Source: a virus (taxonomy: Duplodnaviria; Heunggongvirae; Uroviricota; Caudoviricetes). Taken from it: DNA of 64,000 nucleotides. Under the pieces are notes generated by a model. That model was not told the origin of the DNA, searched no databases, and worked only from the letters and a program-made list of their open reading frames with translations. Positions 8,746-14,385 of this stretch are shown here, piece after piece; the stretch's first letter is position 1; each line of letters begins with the position of its first letter. Made by a program: the position numbers and the translations under genes. The stretch is from the IMG/VR virus record IMGVR_UViG_2563366911_000001; one strand, written 5' to 3'.

Positions 8746-11733
8746 ATGAGCTTAAGCGATCAGGTGGTAATGGCCACCAGCATAGAAACGCTGATCGAGC
8801 TGCTAAAGAACCTGCCCGATTATGGGCGGGTTTCGTATGTGGTGACAGCGAAGGGAGACGAGGTAAAAACAGCGTTTGATATCGTCGATGCCTCAGCTCT
8901 TTTGGTATCCAATACTCTGGATGGGAAAATTAATCCTGACTATCCCCAGGAACTTCAGCCGCGCGACCGGACCCGCGCATCCAGCCTTCTTCAGGTTAAC
9001 CAGATATCCAAAGATTTGCGGCCTGCTCAGCTTACTGATTCCGGTTTATCCAGCCATGGTGCGCCGATAATTGGTGAGGACAATGCCGTTGAGTCAGGTA
9101 ATGGACGGACCATGGGGATCATCAAAGCCTATCAGGACGGCAATGCGGATCGGTATCGTGAGTACCTGATTGATCATGCGACCGAATTCGGCATACGACC
9201 TGAAAAGGTTGAATCAATGACGGCTCCGGTACTGGTGCGCCGCCGGTTAACCAAGGTTGACCGCGTTCAGTTTGCCAAGGACTCAAATATTTCTGATCTT
9301 CAGGAAATGGCAGCCAGTGAAAAGGCTTTTGTTGATGCCGACAGCATAACACCGGCGATGATGGCGCTTTTTAACCCGTCAGAAAGCGGAGATCTGCTTA
9401 GCCGCAGTAATGACGCGTTTATTCGCGGATTTATGACGCAAGTTGGTGCCACACAGGCGGCTGGCCTTGTAACGGAAGATGGGCGACCAACGCGGCAACT
9501 TGTTGACCGTATACAAAACGCGATCTTTGCCAAGGCATATAAGGATGCGCGCCTGGTAAGGATGGTTGCAGAAGAACCTGATCCGGATATGCGTAATGTT
9601 CTGACGGCGCTTAATGCGGCAGCCAATGATTTTGTCCAGATGCAGGCTTTATCAGGAGAAGCGCACAAGCAGGCTGTGACAACTATTGTTGATGGCATTG
9701 AGACAGCGGATAGCCTCGATAAAAAGGCGCTGGCGGCATTGAAAGATGCGGTAGACCTGGTAAGGCAATCGAAGGAGTCAGGCCAGCATATTACCGATGT
9801 TATTGCTCAGGGGGATATGTTCAGCGAAATGGCCCCGGAAGTGAAAGCACTCGCGTTGTTCATCGTCGCGAATAACCGTAGCGCGAAGCGTATGGCCACC
9901 GCCTTTAAGTTGATGGCTCAACGTATCAATGATGAGTTACAGCACCAGGGCCAGGCGCTGGGGGATATGTTTGGCGGCGGCGATGTGTCGTTACAGGATA
10001 TCCTTCGCCAGGTGTCTCAGGAACTGGAAAACGAAGGCATGCAAGGGATATCCGGCGGTCTTTTCGAGTCCGTTTCCGGCGGTAGTTACAACGGTGTTGC
10101 TCCGTATACCAGTTTGCTATTACATCGGACATCCGGCATCAAAGACATTATTCATCTGATCAGGCTGCTTTCCCGCACAGATCCCCAGGATGAACAGCTT
10201 GTACAAGTGCTTGCGCATTTTGTTCGAATGCCTGTTGCCGACGTGAAAAAATGGTGCCGATTATTCGGTATCAGCAATTCGTTACTTCGCGGCTTGTTAA
10301 ATCACGCATCCTCCCTTGGGCGCGATGGCTTTGACGAGATAGCGCAGGCGATAAAAAACGGAGATATGCCACCAGCTATTGACTGGTTTTCCATTCGCCC
10401 AACCAGGGTGAAAGCATTCCTTAGCGCGGCGCATTCGGCATCACCATTGGCAGAAATGGTTCAGAGGTTGTCGCTCATATTCACAGACCATACCGCGTTG
10501 GGTGATCTGACTCTGGACGAGATGAAAGAAGCCTCCATTCAGTGGGCCGATCAACAAAATGAGGTTAACTCAGACTTCTTGCCAGCATTCAGGAAGGCCG
10601 TTAGTAAAGCGGATGATGCCCGTGGAATTCTGAAGGCATTTAAGGCATTGCAAAGTCGTGTTAATAAACATGTCGGTGATATCGATGGGGTAACGGCGGA
10701 AGGCCGGGATATCCTTAAAGAGCACGGCATAACACCAGAGTTTATTGATGAGATCAGGACGGATATGCAGCGTGAGGTCGTATCGTCCCTGCAAATTGTA
10801 GCCAGAGCGTTGGCGGATGCTAATCCGAAGAGTGCGGCCATTGTTAACCGGGTTATTGGTGATATTGAAGCATCGGAGGGCATGGGGGCGCTGAAACTCT
10901 TCCTTTCGCGAGCGTTTAATCCTAACGGCAATATTCTCCCTGGCATTATTGGTGAGGCTAAAAAGTATGTCAGTGAAGAAGAACTTGAGCAGCTTGACCA
11001 ACTACTTAAGCGATTCTCATATAACCCGCAGACACGCTGGCAAATGAATCAGCGAAGTATGGGTTCGGTCCACGAGAAAGTGTTATCTGCCATGAACAGT
11101 GCGATCGCAAACTCATCCGTATCTGAAGAAAAAGCTCTTGAGTGGGCCGACTCTTTTATCACGGAAGAAGTGGAAGAAGCTCGCGCTGGACAGAATGGTG
11201 GGATAGACCTGCGCAAGGAACTTGCTGATATTTATCGCCTGACCGGCGGGAAAATATCGACCTTATCAAAGGTAGTTCACCACCAGGGAAGGGCATATGC
11301 AAATCTAAATGGTGTTGTTGCTGTCAATTTGAACGATGAAAATGCAAGTGCACTGTGGCACGAGCTGGGTCATCATCTTGAGTACAGTAACCCTGGTTTG
11401 TTAGAGAAAGCCCGATCATTCCTGAAGGCCAATGTTGAAGGGGATAAGCCATCTTTCGTCAATATCGGTGGGCGTGGCAAGCCTGAATGGTGCTTCAGAT
11501 CTCGATTGAGTAATATTTATATGGCGAAGGTATACCCGCCAGCCTCAGTAAGTAACACCGGGAAAATTCGGCAGAAATCACCGACTATTTCCAAAACGTC
11601 AGCAACGGAAGTATTCTCTATGGCTCTTCAGTTGTATCATGACAAAGAGGCCGCTGCCGCATCACTGATGAATGGTGACGGATTGCTGGAACTGTTATTA
11701 GGTGTGGCAAAGGAGCTAAATAATGCAGATTAA
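8746..11733 (+). CDS. ddrB: DdrB-like large virion protein
   Basis: 995 aa; positional. Confidence 0.5.
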   Translation: MSLSDQVVMATSIETLIELLKNLPDYGRVSYVVTAKGDEVKTAFDIVDASALLVSNTLDGKINPDYPQELQPRDRTRASSLLQVNQISKDLRPAQLTDSGLSSHGAPIIGEDNAVESGNGRTMGIIKAYQDGNADRYREYLIDHATEFGIRPEKVESMTAPVLVRRRLTKVDRVQFAKDSNISDLQEMAASEKAFVDADSITPAMMALFNPSESGDLLSRSNDAFIRGFMTQVGATQAAGLVTEDGRPTRQLVDRIQNAIFAKAYKDARLVRMVAEEPDPDMRNVLTALNAAANDFVQMQALSGEAHKQAVTTIVDGIETADSLDKKALAALKDAVDLVRQSKESGQHITDVIAQGDMFSEMAPEVKALALFIVANNRSAKRMATAFKLMAQRINDELQHQGQALGDMFGGGDVSLQDILRQVSQELENEGMQGISGGLFESVSGGSYNGVAPYTSLLLHRTSGIKDIIHLIRLLSRTDPQDEQLVQVLAHFVRMPVADVKKWCRLFGISNSLLRGLLNHASSLGRDGFDEIAQAIKNGDMPPAIDWFSIRPTRVKAFLSAAHSASPLAEMVQRLSLIFTDHTALGDLTLDEMKEASIQWADQQNEVNSDFLPAFRKAVSKADDARGILKAFKALQSRVNKHVGDIDGVTAEGRDILKEHGITPEFIDEIRTDMQREVVSSLQIVARALADANPKSAAIVNRVIGDIEASEGMGALKLFLSRAFNPNGNILPGIIGEAKKYVSEEELEQLDQLLKRFSYNPQTRWQMNQRSMGSVHEKVLSAMNSAIANSSVSEEKALEWADSFITEEVEEARAGQNGGIDLRKELADIYRLTGGKISTLSKVVHHQGRAYANLNGVVAVNLNDENASALWHELGHHLEYSNPGLLEKARSFLKANVEGDKPSFVNIGGRGKPEWCFRSRLSNIYMAKVYPPASVSNTGKIRQKSPTISKTSATEVFSMALQLYHDKEAAAASLMNGDGLLELLLGVAKELNNAD

Positions 11734-12034
11734 AATCGCAGCGCCATTAGGCGGAGATGCCATTATCGAATTTGATGATAATGAAGAAGTTTCCGGGCGT
11801 TTAAGCATTATCTCCGGTGACATTACCGAGGACATGATCGCTGAAGCCATAGCTGGGGCAAATCCCAATAGCTATATGGGATTCGTTAACACCCTTGATG
11901 CTCCCGCAAGTGATGTTCTCCGAACGCTGCATCTTTACGCTGGCTGGTTTGTTGATTGGCCAGCAGTAGATGGTGGCGATGAGGACGACGACGACGATGA
12001 TTTTGGTGATCATGTAGACCAGATCGTATATTGA
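11723..12034 (+). CDS. Small acidic protein, unknown
   Basis: 103 aa with a poly-D/E tail. Confidence 0.4.
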   Translation: MQIKIAAPLGGDAIIEFDDNEEVSGRLSIISGDITEDMIAEAIAGANPNSYMGFVNTLDAPASDVLRTLHLYAGWFVDWPAVDGGDEDDDDDDFGDHVDQIVY

Positions 12035-12037
12035 AGA

Positions 12038-12065
12038 AATCCCGCCAATCGGCGGGATTTTTTTT
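12038..12065. terminator. Bidirectional rho-independent terminator
   Basis: aaatcccgcc-aatc-ggcgggattt followed by a T tract. Confidence 0.7.
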
Positions 12066-12846
12066 AATCGCTTTCCACTTCTTCCGTGGTGTTTTCTTGC
12101 AGTTCTGTTAATGCAGCACGACATAGGTTCCGGGCATTGGCTATAGCCACACTTTTGACTTCATCCGTCATCGTGCAGGTAATGTACTGATCGAGTTCTT
12201 CAGCGCGGATGATGCTTTTGCCAATCAGAAACTGTATTTGCCAGAGCAGATCGGCATCCATAATCAGAATTTCTGCCGGGCCTTCAGGGCCAGCCGGGAA
12301 GGAAACATAAGACTGTTTGCCCAGGCCGACAACTCGACAACTTGCTTCAAGAATTGCGCGCTTGAGGTCTGACTTTATAACGGAAACAGGTTGATTTTCA
12401 CCAGTGATTACGCCGTTGACATGGAAAGGCATGTAGCTTGAAATACGCTCCACTTTCCACACGCCAGCAAGCGATCCTTCATGCAGCACAATGGGGGTAA
12501 CCGCGAGTTTCATCTCACCATATAACTGCTGGCAGATAGCTGGATTGCTGAATACATCCAAAGGTTCACACTCAAACAGCGGCGCAATCTGCATGAGGTC
12601 CATCATGGTCATACCAGGGGTACGAGCAGTAATGAATCTGCGCATGCCAGTATCCATTGTGCGCCAGATAGCTACACCATGCTTTTTGCTCACTTCTTCA
12701 GTAAAGCCAAGGTGGCACATGATGGTTTTTTCGATAGCCAGATCAGAGATCGAAACCTTTTCGCCAGGCACACCATCATTATTGATGGTCACTTCGACAC
12801 TCTGACCATTACGCAGGCGGTATTGAATTGCTTTAGTATTTTCCAC
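12064..12846 (-). CDS. Hypothetical protein, last gene of the ssb operon
   Basis: 260 aa, no recognised motifs. Confidence 0.5.
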   Translation of the reverse strand: MENTKAIQYRLRNGQSVEVTINNDGVPGEKVSISDLAIEKTIMCHLGFTEEVSKKHGVAIWRTMDTGMRRFITARTPGMTMMDLMQIAPLFECEPLDVFSNPAICQQLYGEMKLAVTPIVLHEGSLAGVWKVERISSYMPFHVNGVITGENQPVSVIKSDLKRAILEASCRVVGLGKQSYVSFPAGPEGPAEILIMDADLLWQIQFLIGKSIIRAEELDQYITCTMTDEVKSVAIANARNLCRAALTELQENTTEEVESD

Positions 12847-12852
12847 GTTAAA

Positions 12853-13530
12853 TCACTCCACTACAAACCAGTCACATGCCAGTAAGTCGCCTACAGAAGG
12901 AACCCACGGAACAACTACACCTTGTGCATTTTTTAAGGCGAAATAAGCACCATACGGAACGAGGTCGCCGGGGAAATATCCCTTAATGGCTTCCATTCGT
13001 GCCGGGTACTGTCCTTCAGGAACCAGCCAGCAGAATTGGTTTTCGCCGTTCCACCCGCGTCGAGCAACTTTCTTGCCATCCTTCAGCCACATCAGCGCGT
13101 CAGAAAAGTCGGCTGCTTCAAGGTCGATTTCTTCTTGTAGAGTAGCGATACCGCCAGCAGAAATAGTTACGTCTCTGGCTGTAATGAATGTCACCCCATT
13201 GTGACCTTCAATGCGGAGCGATACCCCATTTTCGAAGAAGTCGTTAGTCCGACTAAAGCCTTCTTCAAATGTTTTTTCTGGTGAATAGGACAGAGATCCG
13301 TCCTCGTAAGCGACCAGATATCCGCCAATTTCTGGTCGGTGTTTTTGCAAAAACATTTTATCAACATGGACTTTTACCCCTTCTGGCTCAACGACTTCGA
13401 TGTTGCAAAGAAGGACCACATCCATTAGGGCGATAATTTCGATATCTTTGATTTTTGAGGCACGAACTGTTTTATGGCTTTTGTATTTTGGAAGTGCCGT
13501 CAAAAGCTCTTTCGTTGTCATGTTATTCAT
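12853..13530 (-). CDS. Protein with C-terminal DUF2829 (Tad2-like) domain
   Basis: C-terminus ...WLKDGKKVARRGWNG...VVPWVPSVGDLLACDWFVVE; start moved to MNNMTT with SD gaggaaag. Confidence 0.5.
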   Translation of the reverse strand: MNNMTTKELLTALPKYKSHKTVRASKIKDIEIIALMDVVLLCNIEVVEPEGVKVHVDKMFLQKHRPEIGGYLVAYEDGSLSYSPEKTFEEGFSRTNDFFENGVSLRIEGHNGVTFITARDVTISAGGIATLQEEIDLEAADFSDALMWLKDGKKVARRGWNGENQFCWLVPEGQYPARMEAIKGYFPGDLVPYGAYFALKNAQGVVVPWVPSVGDLLACDWFVVE

Positions 13531-13727
13531 AGTCTTTCCTCTGCTTAAAACCTGATGTATTGCGCCTTCAGGTGGGTCAAGAATGTTTTCCCACCAGCGA
13601 AAGCAATATCTCGGGGTGTTCTTTTCGTGAAAAGCGCGTGCCATTGCCAACTGTGGCGTTTTTTAGCGAGTTCGTGCTTTTGTTGGCGTCTGGACCACCG
13701 CTTTTCTTTCAATCGTTTTTTACTCAT

Positions 13728-14216
13728 TCAAAACGGAATATCGTCGTCAAAGTCCATTGGAGGTTCGTTATTGGCGTTGCTCTGAGGTTTACCGCCACCA
13801 CTGTATTGCTGGTGGTTTTGAGGTTGGTTTGATTGCCCCCAGCCGTTTGAGGACTGTGAATCGTCACGACGAGTGCCGATCATTTGCATGGTGCCGCCCT
13901 GGCTGACGATAATTTCCGTCGTGTAACGTTCTACACCGGCGTCATCTGTCCACTTACGGGTTTTAAGTTTCCCTTCGATGTAGACCTGAGAACCTTTTCG
14001 TAAATACTCACTCGCAATTTCAGCAAGTTTTCCGAACAAAACGACTTTATGCCATTCTGTTTGCTCTTTCTGTTGGCCCGTTTGCTTGTCGCGCCATGAT
14101 TCATTCGTTGCGATGCTGAGTCTTCCGACCGCGCCGCCATTTGGTATATACCTGATCTCCGGGTCTTGCCCCAGGGTACCAATCAGGATGACTTTGTTTA
14201 CACCGCGTTGTGCCAC
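13728..14216 (-). CDS. ssb: Single-stranded DNA-binding protein
   Basis: [20 protein letters not shown]..., Gly/Gln-rich tail ending DDDIPF. Confidence 0.95.
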
Positions 14217-14235
14217 TTATCTTACCTAATAAAAT

Positions 14236-14252
14236 AAATTAATTAGAGCAAT
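14236..14252. promoter_or_regulatory. C1 operator (1 mismatch) between ssb and lyz
   Basis: aaattaattagagcaat versus reverse consensus aaatttattagagcaat. Confidence 0.7.
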
Positions 14253-14385
14253 AATGTATATCTTTGAAACGTAGCTAACAAGTGATTTGCATTATCCTGT
14301 GTCTTCTAAAGGGATCGAGTCAGTCGGTATTGGCTGTGAATGGGTGTTTGTCCTGGAGCGTAAAAAATTCGCTTATGAGGTCTTT

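Follow-up and report, generated by a model that had tools for sequence, protein, structure and literature searches.

The ssb operon in the window (the whole stretch of 64,000 nucleotides analyzed here) contains a real and intact gene for a Tad2-like protein, which, judging from its sequence, is most likely an early-expressed sponge for ADPR-type signals of TIR/Thoeris immunity; we infer both this function and the ligand. The operon and its surroundings comprise the following features, given in order of transcription.

14236..14252, minus strand: C1 repressor operator upstream of ssb, equivalent of P1 Op21/Ossb (16/17 consensus)
13728..14216, minus strand: ssb (162 aa), with which the operon begins (Pfam SSB, E = 6.8e-40)
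13531..13727, minus strand: 197-nt leader between ssb and the Tad2-like gene, common to P1 and missing in P7
12853..13530, minus strand: gene for the two-domain Tad2-like protein (225 aa plus stop), with a linker between the domains
13237..13494, minus strand: N-terminal beta-barrel (aa 13-98) with a Dec-like OB fold and a phrog_11049 core (AF2, Foldseek, phrog)
13126..13236, minus strand: variable linker (aa 99-135), predicted to be disordered or of low confidence (pLDDT below 50)
12856..13125, minus strand: C-terminal Tad2 domain (aa 136-225), predicted signal-binding sponge module (PF11195, ModTad2, Foldseek)
12806..13171, no strand: recombination patch with near-identity to D6-type phage-plasmids (97.5% nucleotide identity to phage D6)
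12064..12846, minus strand: isaA orthologue with a GTG start, encoding 260 aa of orphan fold
12040..12062, no strand: bidirectional intrinsic terminator hairpin where isaA and hxr converge (stem-loop with T/A runs)

The first-pass annotation had assigned the C-terminus of the 12853-13530 product to DUF2829, the Tad2 family, and this assignment is upheld by the profile, by sequence comparison with solved structures and by the predicted fold. The Pfam model PF11195 ("Tad2-like") matched residues 141-224 over profile positions 2-73 of 73 with an E-value of 1.6e-22, far above chance, and a score of 80.3 bits (Pfam gathering cut-off, 25); the DUF2829 motif quoted in that annotation is present as LKDGKKVARRGWNGEN...VPWVPSVGDLLACDWFVVE. 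Sequence matches to solved sponges were obtained for ModTad2 (9EIB/8V3E, E = 6e-20 to 8e-21), HgmTad2/AcrIIA7 (E = 4e-10) and SPO1 Tad2 (E = 7e-9), ModTad2 being the closest by ten orders of magnitude in E-value and sharing 45.5% identity, as against 41% and 38.5% for the others. In the AF2 model, the Tad2 domain (pLDDT 90-95) has an N-terminal helix, an antiparallel sheet and the alpha2/alpha3 loops, and can be superimposed on solved Tad2 structures. Its top Foldseek match is 9EIB, ModTad2 with His-ADPR (E = 2.9e-9, 46% identity, TMt 0.78-0.89), and 9EIB, 8V3E, 8KBJ, 8WJE and 8SMF were together recovered at E = 3e-9 to 9e-6 with TMt of 0.62-0.89. At 225 aa, the protein is longer than the single domain of ~90-100 aa that is typical of Tad2 but does not define it. 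An N-terminal extension is also present in a solved AcrIIA7 chain, 9KZR (158 aa). A Pfam search of the window protein found neither a Sequestin PF21825 domain nor an Acb4 domain, and a profile scan of genome contigs with the Tad2-domain alignment, made for the tested Tatumella homologue, yielded one irrelevant locus.

All ORFs that had been claimed within 12064-13650 are present as described. The ATG of the Tad2-like gene at 13530 is preceded by GAGGAAAGACT, and this start with its RBS is preferred over a TTG start; the 265-aa ORF that reaches 13650 from that TTG is very unlikely to be a real gene because the database clusters of the Tad2-like protein consist of 225-aa proteins. The 281-aa annotation in SJ46 was rejected on the same two grounds. 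The ORF is intact and widespread, being found in 229 PLSDB plasmids and in protein clusters with 453 and 140 members. RefSeq already labels the gene DUF2829, and a DefenseFinder survey of 2025 called Tad2 in 56% of P1-type and 93% of D6-type phage-plasmids, the label given to such P1/D6 genes being "Tad2 AcrIIA7". The occurrence of Tad2 in P1-like elements is therefore not new, and since the family has already been annotated and reported there, the present find is solid rather than novel.

The placement of the gene downstream of ssb and behind a C1 operator, also put forward in the first-pass annotation, was borne out: the Tad2-like gene lies between ssb and isaA, and the operator ATTGCTCTAATTAATTT matches the C1 consensus at 16 of 17 positions, a level reached 13 times in the window against an expectation of 0.39. 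An operator at the same relative position is annotated in P1 and P7, and ssb itself shares 96-98% nucleotide identity with the ssb genes of these two phages. The leader ends in a shared RBS, TAAGCAGAGGAAAGACT, and is 98% identical to that of P1 up to the ATG. At least 80% of an ssb-plus-leader query was covered in about 328 of 500 PLSDB records with a P1-type ssb. The leader was also considered as an attenuator or a structured RNA, and this was rejected because its fold is not significant (z = -1.3; range of folding z-scores, -1.2 to -1.9) and the Rfam matches all lie below the gathering score. A 60-aa basic ORF in the leader (13545-13727), without a family match, is probably not coding; it is intact in P1 and SJ46 and differs at 4-5 residues despite ~98% nucleotide identity. 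Leader folding and a promoter/terminator scan revealed no convincing terminator between ssb and the Tad2-like gene. Little weight is given to the scanner's negative result, because it failed to list the obvious hairpin at 12040-12062, whose folding energies are -17.1 kcal/mol on the minus strand and -21 kcal/mol on the plus strand (z = -4.0 and -4.9). The Tad2-like gene is presumably co-transcribed with ssb.

Besides the Tad2 domain, which had been recognized correctly, the protein contains an N-terminal Dec-like beta-barrel, and this two-domain make-up had been missed. The barrel is modeled by AF2 with pLDDT of about 88-94 and matches phrog_11049 at E = 6e-26. Foldseek aligned it to Dec of phage L (6E3C) over 84 columns (E = 1.8e-3, 27% identity), and phmmer gave a weak match (E = 0.38); word-indexed protein searching with the isolated N-domain as query yielded close fragments only. 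Stand-alone phrog_11049-type proteins of 91-95 aa occur in other phages, and fusions of the same barrel with Tad2 (phrog_872), with Sequestin (phrog_32732) and with MazG-like pyrophosphatases also exist. Among relatives, the linker comes in two allelic types. The pairwise dN/dS of the N-domain, about 0.45, lends no support to positive selection. Sequestin was discovered by a "guilt by fusion to Tad2" logic; by the same logic, the fusion to Tad2 suggests the barrel as a further anti-defense module, either a sponge or an adaptor, and the orphan fold, purifying selection and recurrent placement of IsaA next to Tad2 likewise suggest IsaA as a new anti-defense protein, a pair of proposals that we regard as tentative and rather unlikely. 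Hadary et al. flagged 6E3C-like domains on Tad2 proteins and explicitly left such proteins, and those with PF21825, out of their tests.

Relative to D6-like plasmids, dS is 0.000 in the C-domain, 0.55-0.59 in the N-domain and above 2 in IsaA, and the Tad2-coding segment is being actively exchanged between P1-like and D6-like lineages. The protein of reference D6 has lost the N-domain and kept the Tad2 domain. Three relatives (P0061, P0073 and P0105) carry Sequestin (PF21825) at the C-terminus. Among P1/D6 elements, three C-domain alleles were observed (the type in the window, an E. albertii type with +8 aa and a short "REWKGEK" type); what distinguishes them is precisely the beta2-beta3 insertion, of which the second pocket is built.

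The 260-aa product downstream had been described as an unknown; it is instead the orthologue of P1 IsaA (P1_gp017), at the same position, with 95.4% amino acid identity over 260 residues and a phrog_2326 match at E = 1.4e-149. The gene begins 6 nt past the Tad2-like gene, with a GGAG RBS inside the end of the latter. The statement that P1 carries IS1-associated genes at this position was right in so far as its gene order is ssb-isaA-IS1-isaB-hxr, and incomplete in that isaA, one of these genes, is present here as well, the 260-aa neighbor being its orthologue. Compared with P1, the window has an extra 684-bp Tad2-like gene body and is missing IS1 and isaB.

The ADPR-pocket core of known sponges is retained. 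In SPO1 Tad2, gcADPR is contacted by W25, N26, W73 and D79, and in HgmTad2 by W21, N22, G23, W87, S90 and D93; in an alignment with both, the corresponding W160, N161, G162, W209, S212 and D215 are kept, and W160, W209 and D215 are invariant among 70 homologues. The adenine-contact residue T78/T92 (T78 in SPO1 Tad2) aligns to G214. Mutagenesis has shown that R31, S47, F70 and N85 of HgmTad2 are needed for cGG/3'3'-cGAMP binding; these residues align to V170, A181, Y193 and P208, and the cyclic-dinucleotide pocket is thus not kept. Because the dinucleotide residues of HgmTad2 are not conserved, an ADPR-type TIR signal would be more likely as the ligand than a CBASS dinucleotide. Specificity cannot be read from homology, given 45.5% identity to the nearest characterized sponge and the variety of ligands bound by Tad2 homologues (3'cADPR, His-ADPR, N7-cADPR, cyclic dinucleotides and cUMP). 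About a quarter of the sponge homologues tested in the literature inhibited none of seven systems.

On the evidence above, we consider it probable that the gene following ssb in its C1-repressed operon encodes a Tad2-family sponge directed against ADPR-derived signals of TIR/Thoeris systems. Once C1 repression is lifted, by infection or induction, the ssb operon would be transcribed early, and the C-terminal domain would assemble into a homotetramer like the solved Tad2 proteins. The tetramer would then sequester a host TIR (Thoeris-type) messenger derived from ADP-ribose, i.e., 3'cADPR or His-ADPR or both, so that the effector would never be activated and infection or lysogenization could proceed. 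A second, ModTad2-like site may accommodate cyclic pyrimidine mononucleotides (Pycsar signals). The Dec-like barrel would be an accessory module dispensable for the sponge core, and IsaA a separate accessory gene that is frequently co-located. Tetramerization, ligand binding and anti-defense activity are in this sense predicted properties of the protein. Counting against the sponge model are the 135-aa N-terminal extension, which may affect tetramer assembly through helix alpha1, the replacement of the adenine contact by G214, the modest identity to characterized sponges and the proportion of tested homologues that inhibited no system.

A sponge for another signal, such as a cyclic di- or trinucleotide of CBASS, the N7-cADPR of type IV Thoeris, a Pycsar cNMP or an unknown messenger, would agree with the very different ligands of Tad2 homologues, with the confinement of the allelic differences to the second-pocket insertion, and with the presence of CBASS and Pycsar in E. 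coli and its relatives. However, the replacement of the HgmTad2 cGG/cGAMP residues and the full conservation of the ADPR-pocket core both speak against it, and we give it a minor share of the probability. We consider it improbable, to a greater degree, that the Tad2-like protein and IsaA form one two-component anti-defense module in which IsaA is needed for, or extends, sponge activity. In favor of such a module, the genes adjoin each other here with apparent translational coupling, and purifying selection acts on IsaA (omega of 0.09-0.23). The pair also recurs at another genomic position in D6-type elements (IsaA 48% identical), and in an Enterobacter element its two members are separated by a single gene (IsaA 37% identical). 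Nevertheless, IsaA often, but not always, adjoins Tad2: IsaA occurs without Tad2 in P1 and L007/L008, and the Tad2-like protein without IsaA in Klebsiella phage SopranoGao and L011; moreover, the characterized Tad2 sponges all act as single proteins.

Two remaining explanations fare worse. A virion- or capsid-associated protein with its Dec-like OB domain on the head is suggested by the resemblance of the N-domain to the OB domain with which Dec of phage L binds the capsid, by the stand-alone homologue of Ralstonia phage GP4, which lies between the portal and major head genes, and by the homologue of phage Dolphis, which is annotated as a decoration protein. P1 also packages anti-restriction Dar proteins into its particles. 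On the other hand, the gene belongs to an early C1-controlled operon and not to a late one, the Dec similarity is weak in both searches given above, reference D6 dispenses with the N-domain while keeping the Tad2 domain, and other stand-alone N-domain genes are located in accessory regions. An AcrIIA7-type anti-CRISPR role, which we weighed together with the virion role, would fit the fact that AcrIIA7 is a DUF2829 protein; however, the hosts are not known to have type II CRISPR. In addition, the anti-Cas9 activity of AcrIIA7 has not been reproducible in the literature, and we rate the virion and anti-CRISPR roles as very unlikely. Least probable, to a nearly negligible degree, is a passenger gene that sits in a variable region and is decaying or has no function. 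Reference P1 lacks the gene, P7 lacks the whole module, and isaA and ssb are non-essential in P1, all of which would be compatible with such a passenger. By contrast, hundreds of plasmids carry the ORF in intact form, no part of the gene reaches a dN/dS of 1, the pocket residues W160, W209 and D215 are invariant, and the Tad2-coding segment is actively swapped between lineages.

P1-like phage-plasmids, which spread resistance genes, are frequently met in clinical E. coli, Shigella and Salmonella. If the protein is an early-expressed signal sponge, it would help to explain how these elements become established in hosts with TIR/Thoeris-type immunity. Because the laboratory reference P1 is without the Tad2-like gene, it offers a natural isogenic background for studying it. 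The two-domain architecture, deliberately excluded from published sponge screens, lends itself to direct tests of its range of ligands and of what the extra domain does.

With respect to known systems, the P1 isaA-IS1-isaB region (RD-2) shares with the window an isaA that follows ssb and the same leader; in P1, isaA comes straight after the shared RBS/ATG, with IS1 and isaB beyond, whereas here the Tad2-like gene is interposed, and neither IS1 nor isaB is present. Among characterized sponges, ModTad2 from a Myroides odoratus prophage (8V3E apo, 9EIB with His-ADPR), which captures His-ADPR as well as cUMP/cCMP and inhibits both type II Thoeris and Pycsar, is the best match to the C-domain in both sequence and fold. 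It shares the WNG...W.PS..D pocket core and a beta2-beta3 insertion whose length differs by one residue, but it is an 88-aa single domain, as opposed to 225 aa with an added barrel and linker, and more than half of the residues differ. SPO1 Tad2 (Gp34.65; 8SME/8SMF/8SMG), the founding anti-Thoeris sponge, agrees in Pfam family and fold, its W25, N26, W73 and D79 being equivalent to W160, N161, W209 and D215. It is less similar (38.5% identity), comes from a lytic Bacillus phage, has T78 at the position of G214, and has a shorter insertion, in which F44 (M179 here) occludes the second pocket. HgmTad2/AcrIIA7 (8KBI-8KBM, 8WJC) has the same domain and gcADPR-pocket core; unlike the protein described here, it carries the dinucleotide-pocket residues and an insertion ~16 residues longer. 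Finally, the fused multi-sponges (Acb4-Tad2 of phage Pm86; Tad2-Sequestin/PF21825) likewise combine Tad2 with small modules in one polypeptide, but instead of Sequestin or Acb4 the partner here is a phrog_11049 Dec-like beta-barrel.

The window element is a P1-like (Punavirus) phage-plasmid: Salmonella phage SJ46 is 98.6% identical to it across window 11700-14300, and a 95-kb Salmonella Pomona plasmid shows 100% identity in the three sub-regions searched. The features of the locus are listed here in the order of the minus strand.

14236-14252, minus strand: C1 operator, matching 16 of 17 consensus positions
13728-14216, minus strand: ssb (Pfam SSB, E 6.8e-40)
Between ssb and the Tad2-like ORF, minus strand: leader of 197 nt
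12853-13530, minus strand: Tad2-like ORF of 225 aa, ATG start preceded by GAGGAAAGACT
12064-12846, minus strand: 260-aa ORF (isaA orthologue), GTG start, GGAG within the end of the upstream gene
12040-12062: strong bidirectional terminator hairpin, facing the convergent hxr gene

As stated in the first-pass annotation, the Tad2-like gene lies downstream of ssb and behind a C1 operator. Operator matches of such quality occur 13 times in the window against 0.39 expected, and P1 and P7 have an annotated C1 operator at the same relative position. The spacing between the Tad2-like ORF and the 260-aa ORF is 6 nt. No convincing terminator was found in the leader between ssb and the Tad2-like gene, which, together with the operator, suggests from the sequence that this gene is expressed early. 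The hairpin and T-run at 12040-12062 are clear on folding (z -4 to -4.9); the promoter/terminator scan of window 11900-14350 omitted them, and its negatives need caution.

The leader is filled by a 60-aa ORF (13545-13727, minus strand) that starts at the ssb stop codon (TGAATG) and has a very basic predicted product (pI 11.8). P1 and SJ46 also have this ORF intact, with 4-5 residue differences from the window version; a search for a family match found none, and the ORF is probably non-coding. Beyond the hairpin, the plus-strand gene at 11723-12034 encodes an extremely acidic product (pI 4.05) that ends in a poly-Asp tail, and the start of this gene overlaps the end of a 995-aa ddrB-like gene. 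Its repressor annotation looks doubtful, and it may be a member of the Dar/Ddr anti-restriction group.

The DUF2829 (Tad2-like) domain previously noticed in the 12853-13530 product was confirmed by Pfam profile search, in which aa 141-224 matched the full PF11195 'Tad2-like' profile (formerly DUF2829) with E 1.6e-22 and 80 bits (cut-off 25). The same segment matches the sequences of the solved sponges ModTad2 (8V3E, 9EIB; E 6e-20), HgmTad2/AcrIIA7 (E 4e-10) and SPO1 Tad2 (E 7e-9). Structure prediction, which had been proposed as a check, agrees: an AlphaFold2 model built from 70 homologues is confident for two domains, one of aa 13-98 and one of aa 140-225, and has low confidence in the linker between them. 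A Foldseek search with the C-terminal domain placed ModTad2 with bound His-ADPR first (TMt 0.78, E 2.9e-9, 46% identity), ahead of HgmTad2 and SPO1 Tad2. The gene was found in 229 PLSDB plasmids. It is named 'DUF2829 domain-containing protein' in RefSeq and 'Thoeris anti-defense Tad2 family protein' in UniRef, and a 2025 DefenseFinder survey reported Tad2 in 56% of P1-type and 93% of D6-type phage-plasmids (bioRxiv 10.1101/2025.09.12.675607). Thus, the Tad2-like call is correct and the gene is not new, its presence in P1/D6 phage-plasmids being already known.

The 260-aa product, initially described as an unknown, proved on sequence comparison to be the orthologue of a named, uncharacterised P1 protein, IsaA (95% amino acid identity). 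In P1-like elements isaA is the immediate neighbour of the Tad2-like gene, and the two also lie side by side in D6-like elements, whose IsaA is 48% identical; an Enterobacter element encodes an IsaA with 37% identity and has one further gene between them. Because either gene can also be found alone, we take isaA to be an accessory gene in its own right, possibly one for anti-defence, with low confidence.

The reference P1 order is ssb, a leader as in the window, isaA, IS1, isaB and hxr. The first-pass statement that P1 carries IS1-associated genes here was therefore right as to isaA, IS1 and isaB, but isaA has its orthologue in the window too. By BLAST, the Tad2-like gene body (684 bp, window 12843-13526) has a counterpart of only 6 bp in P1, and P1 has 1.7 kb (isaB and IS1) where the window has the terminator only. 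The window, P1 and D6 have an RBS-ATG block in common, TAAGCAGAG(G/A)AAAGACT-ATG, which in D6 stands upstream of the Tad2-like gene in another neighbourhood, after a dUTPase gene. Given this common block, the best reading of the P1 arrangement is that the Tad2-like gene was lost, a direction that we infer. In P7 (L003 3652-4767), an nmpC porin gene lies between ssb and the hxr equivalent and replaces the whole leader-isaA module; hence, the ssb-hxr interval is a hot spot for cargo, its contents being of at least three kinds (P1, P7 and SJ46 types). Under the name RD-2, it is already known to vary among P1-like plasmids (PMC6906374).

Between the window and D6-type plasmids, the Tad2 domain shows 100% protein identity and a dS of 0.000, amid an N-domain with dS 0.55-0.59 and an IsaA with dS >2. 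This pattern indicates recent recombination of the Tad2-domain segment, not selection alone. Phage D6 is 97.5% identical in nucleotides to window 12806-13171, and this segment, compared across loci L004 (phage D6), L005 and L016, has the appearance of a recombination patch that is recent and the size of one domain. At least three C-domain alleles, differing in the beta2-beta3 insertion, occur in P1/D6 elements (compared in L018 1510-2211 of an E. albertii plasmid, L019 1361-2011 of an E. coli plasmid and window 12856-13125); one is 8 aa longer, and one is shorter, with REWKGEK replacing RGWNGEN. Since HgmTad2 and ModTad2 form their second ligand pocket from this insertion, ligand range may vary among the alleles.

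The predicted N-terminal beta-barrel (aa 13-98) is similar to the OB domain of Dec, a decoration protein of phage L (6E3C), with a Foldseek E of 1.8e-3 at 27% identity over 84 columns and a phmmer E of 0.38. This barrel is the core of phrog_11049, which has a function-less PHROG annotation. It stands alone in Ralstonia phage GP4, between portal and major head genes, and in an accessory region of E. coli phage Bas106, and occupies the N-terminal half of a protein of 164 aa in Pseudomonas phage Dolphis. It is also fused to Tad2 (phrog_872) and to Sequestin (PF21825), the phrog_32732 profile having the N-domain up to position ~92 and Sequestin at 90-159; a MazG-like family matches it weakly. Relatives of the window protein, among them P0056 (241 aa), P0023 (306 aa) and P0105 (386 aa), include a dUTPase-Tad2 fusion, a tail-fibre repeat with Tad2, and four-module chains, as in P0105, of the Dec-like barrel, a second unknown barrel (motif GDWII..GE.YPCKPDIF), Tad2 and Sequestin. 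The second barrel has a further match, to the N-terminal part of a PHROG whose annotation is nucleotide pyrophosphohydrolase. Sequestin was found as a 3'cADPR sponge through its fusion to Tad2 (bioRxiv 10.1101/2025.07.12.664507). A later Tad2 screen left out, ahead of its assays, any protein with a PF21825 or 6E3C-like domain (bioRxiv 10.1101/2025.08.24.671296), so the two-domain architecture had been noticed earlier. Several observations count against an essential role of the N-domain: its conserved residues are mostly hydrophobic or glycine, its dN/dS is ~0.45, and the D6 reference protein (orf114, L004 4048-4488; 146 aa) has an internal deletion of aa 21 to ~100, so that residues 1-20 and the Tad2 domain remain. 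Other D6-type plasmids encode barrel-retaining forms of 216-225 aa.

The Tad2 proteins characterised so far form homotetramers, which sequester TIR-made signals. SPO1 Tad2 binds 1''-3' gcADPR via W25, N26, W73 and D79 (bioRxiv 10.1101/2023.05.01.538930), and HgmTad2 uses W21, N22, G23, W87, S90 and D93 (bioRxiv 10.1101/2023.11.15.567273). The ADPR-pocket core is intact in the window protein (W160, N161, G162, W209, S212, D215), with W160, W209 and D215 invariant among the 70 homologues. With the closest characterised protein sharing 45.5% identity, no ligand can be assigned. We infer ligand binding, tetramerisation, co-transcription and anti-defence activity; the protein would most likely be expressed early and act as a sponge for a TIR signal of the ADPR type, 3'cADPR, His-ADPR or both. 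HgmTad2 has a separate cyclic-dinucleotide pocket requiring R31, S47, F70 and N85 (bioRxiv 10.1101/2023.11.15.567273), whereas the window protein has V170, A181, Y193 and P208 in their place. ModTad2 binds His-ADPR, and cUMP/cCMP at a second interface, thereby blocking type II Thoeris and Pycsar; its beta2-beta3 insertion differs from that of the window protein by one residue in length, and a ModTad2-like second site may be present in the latter.
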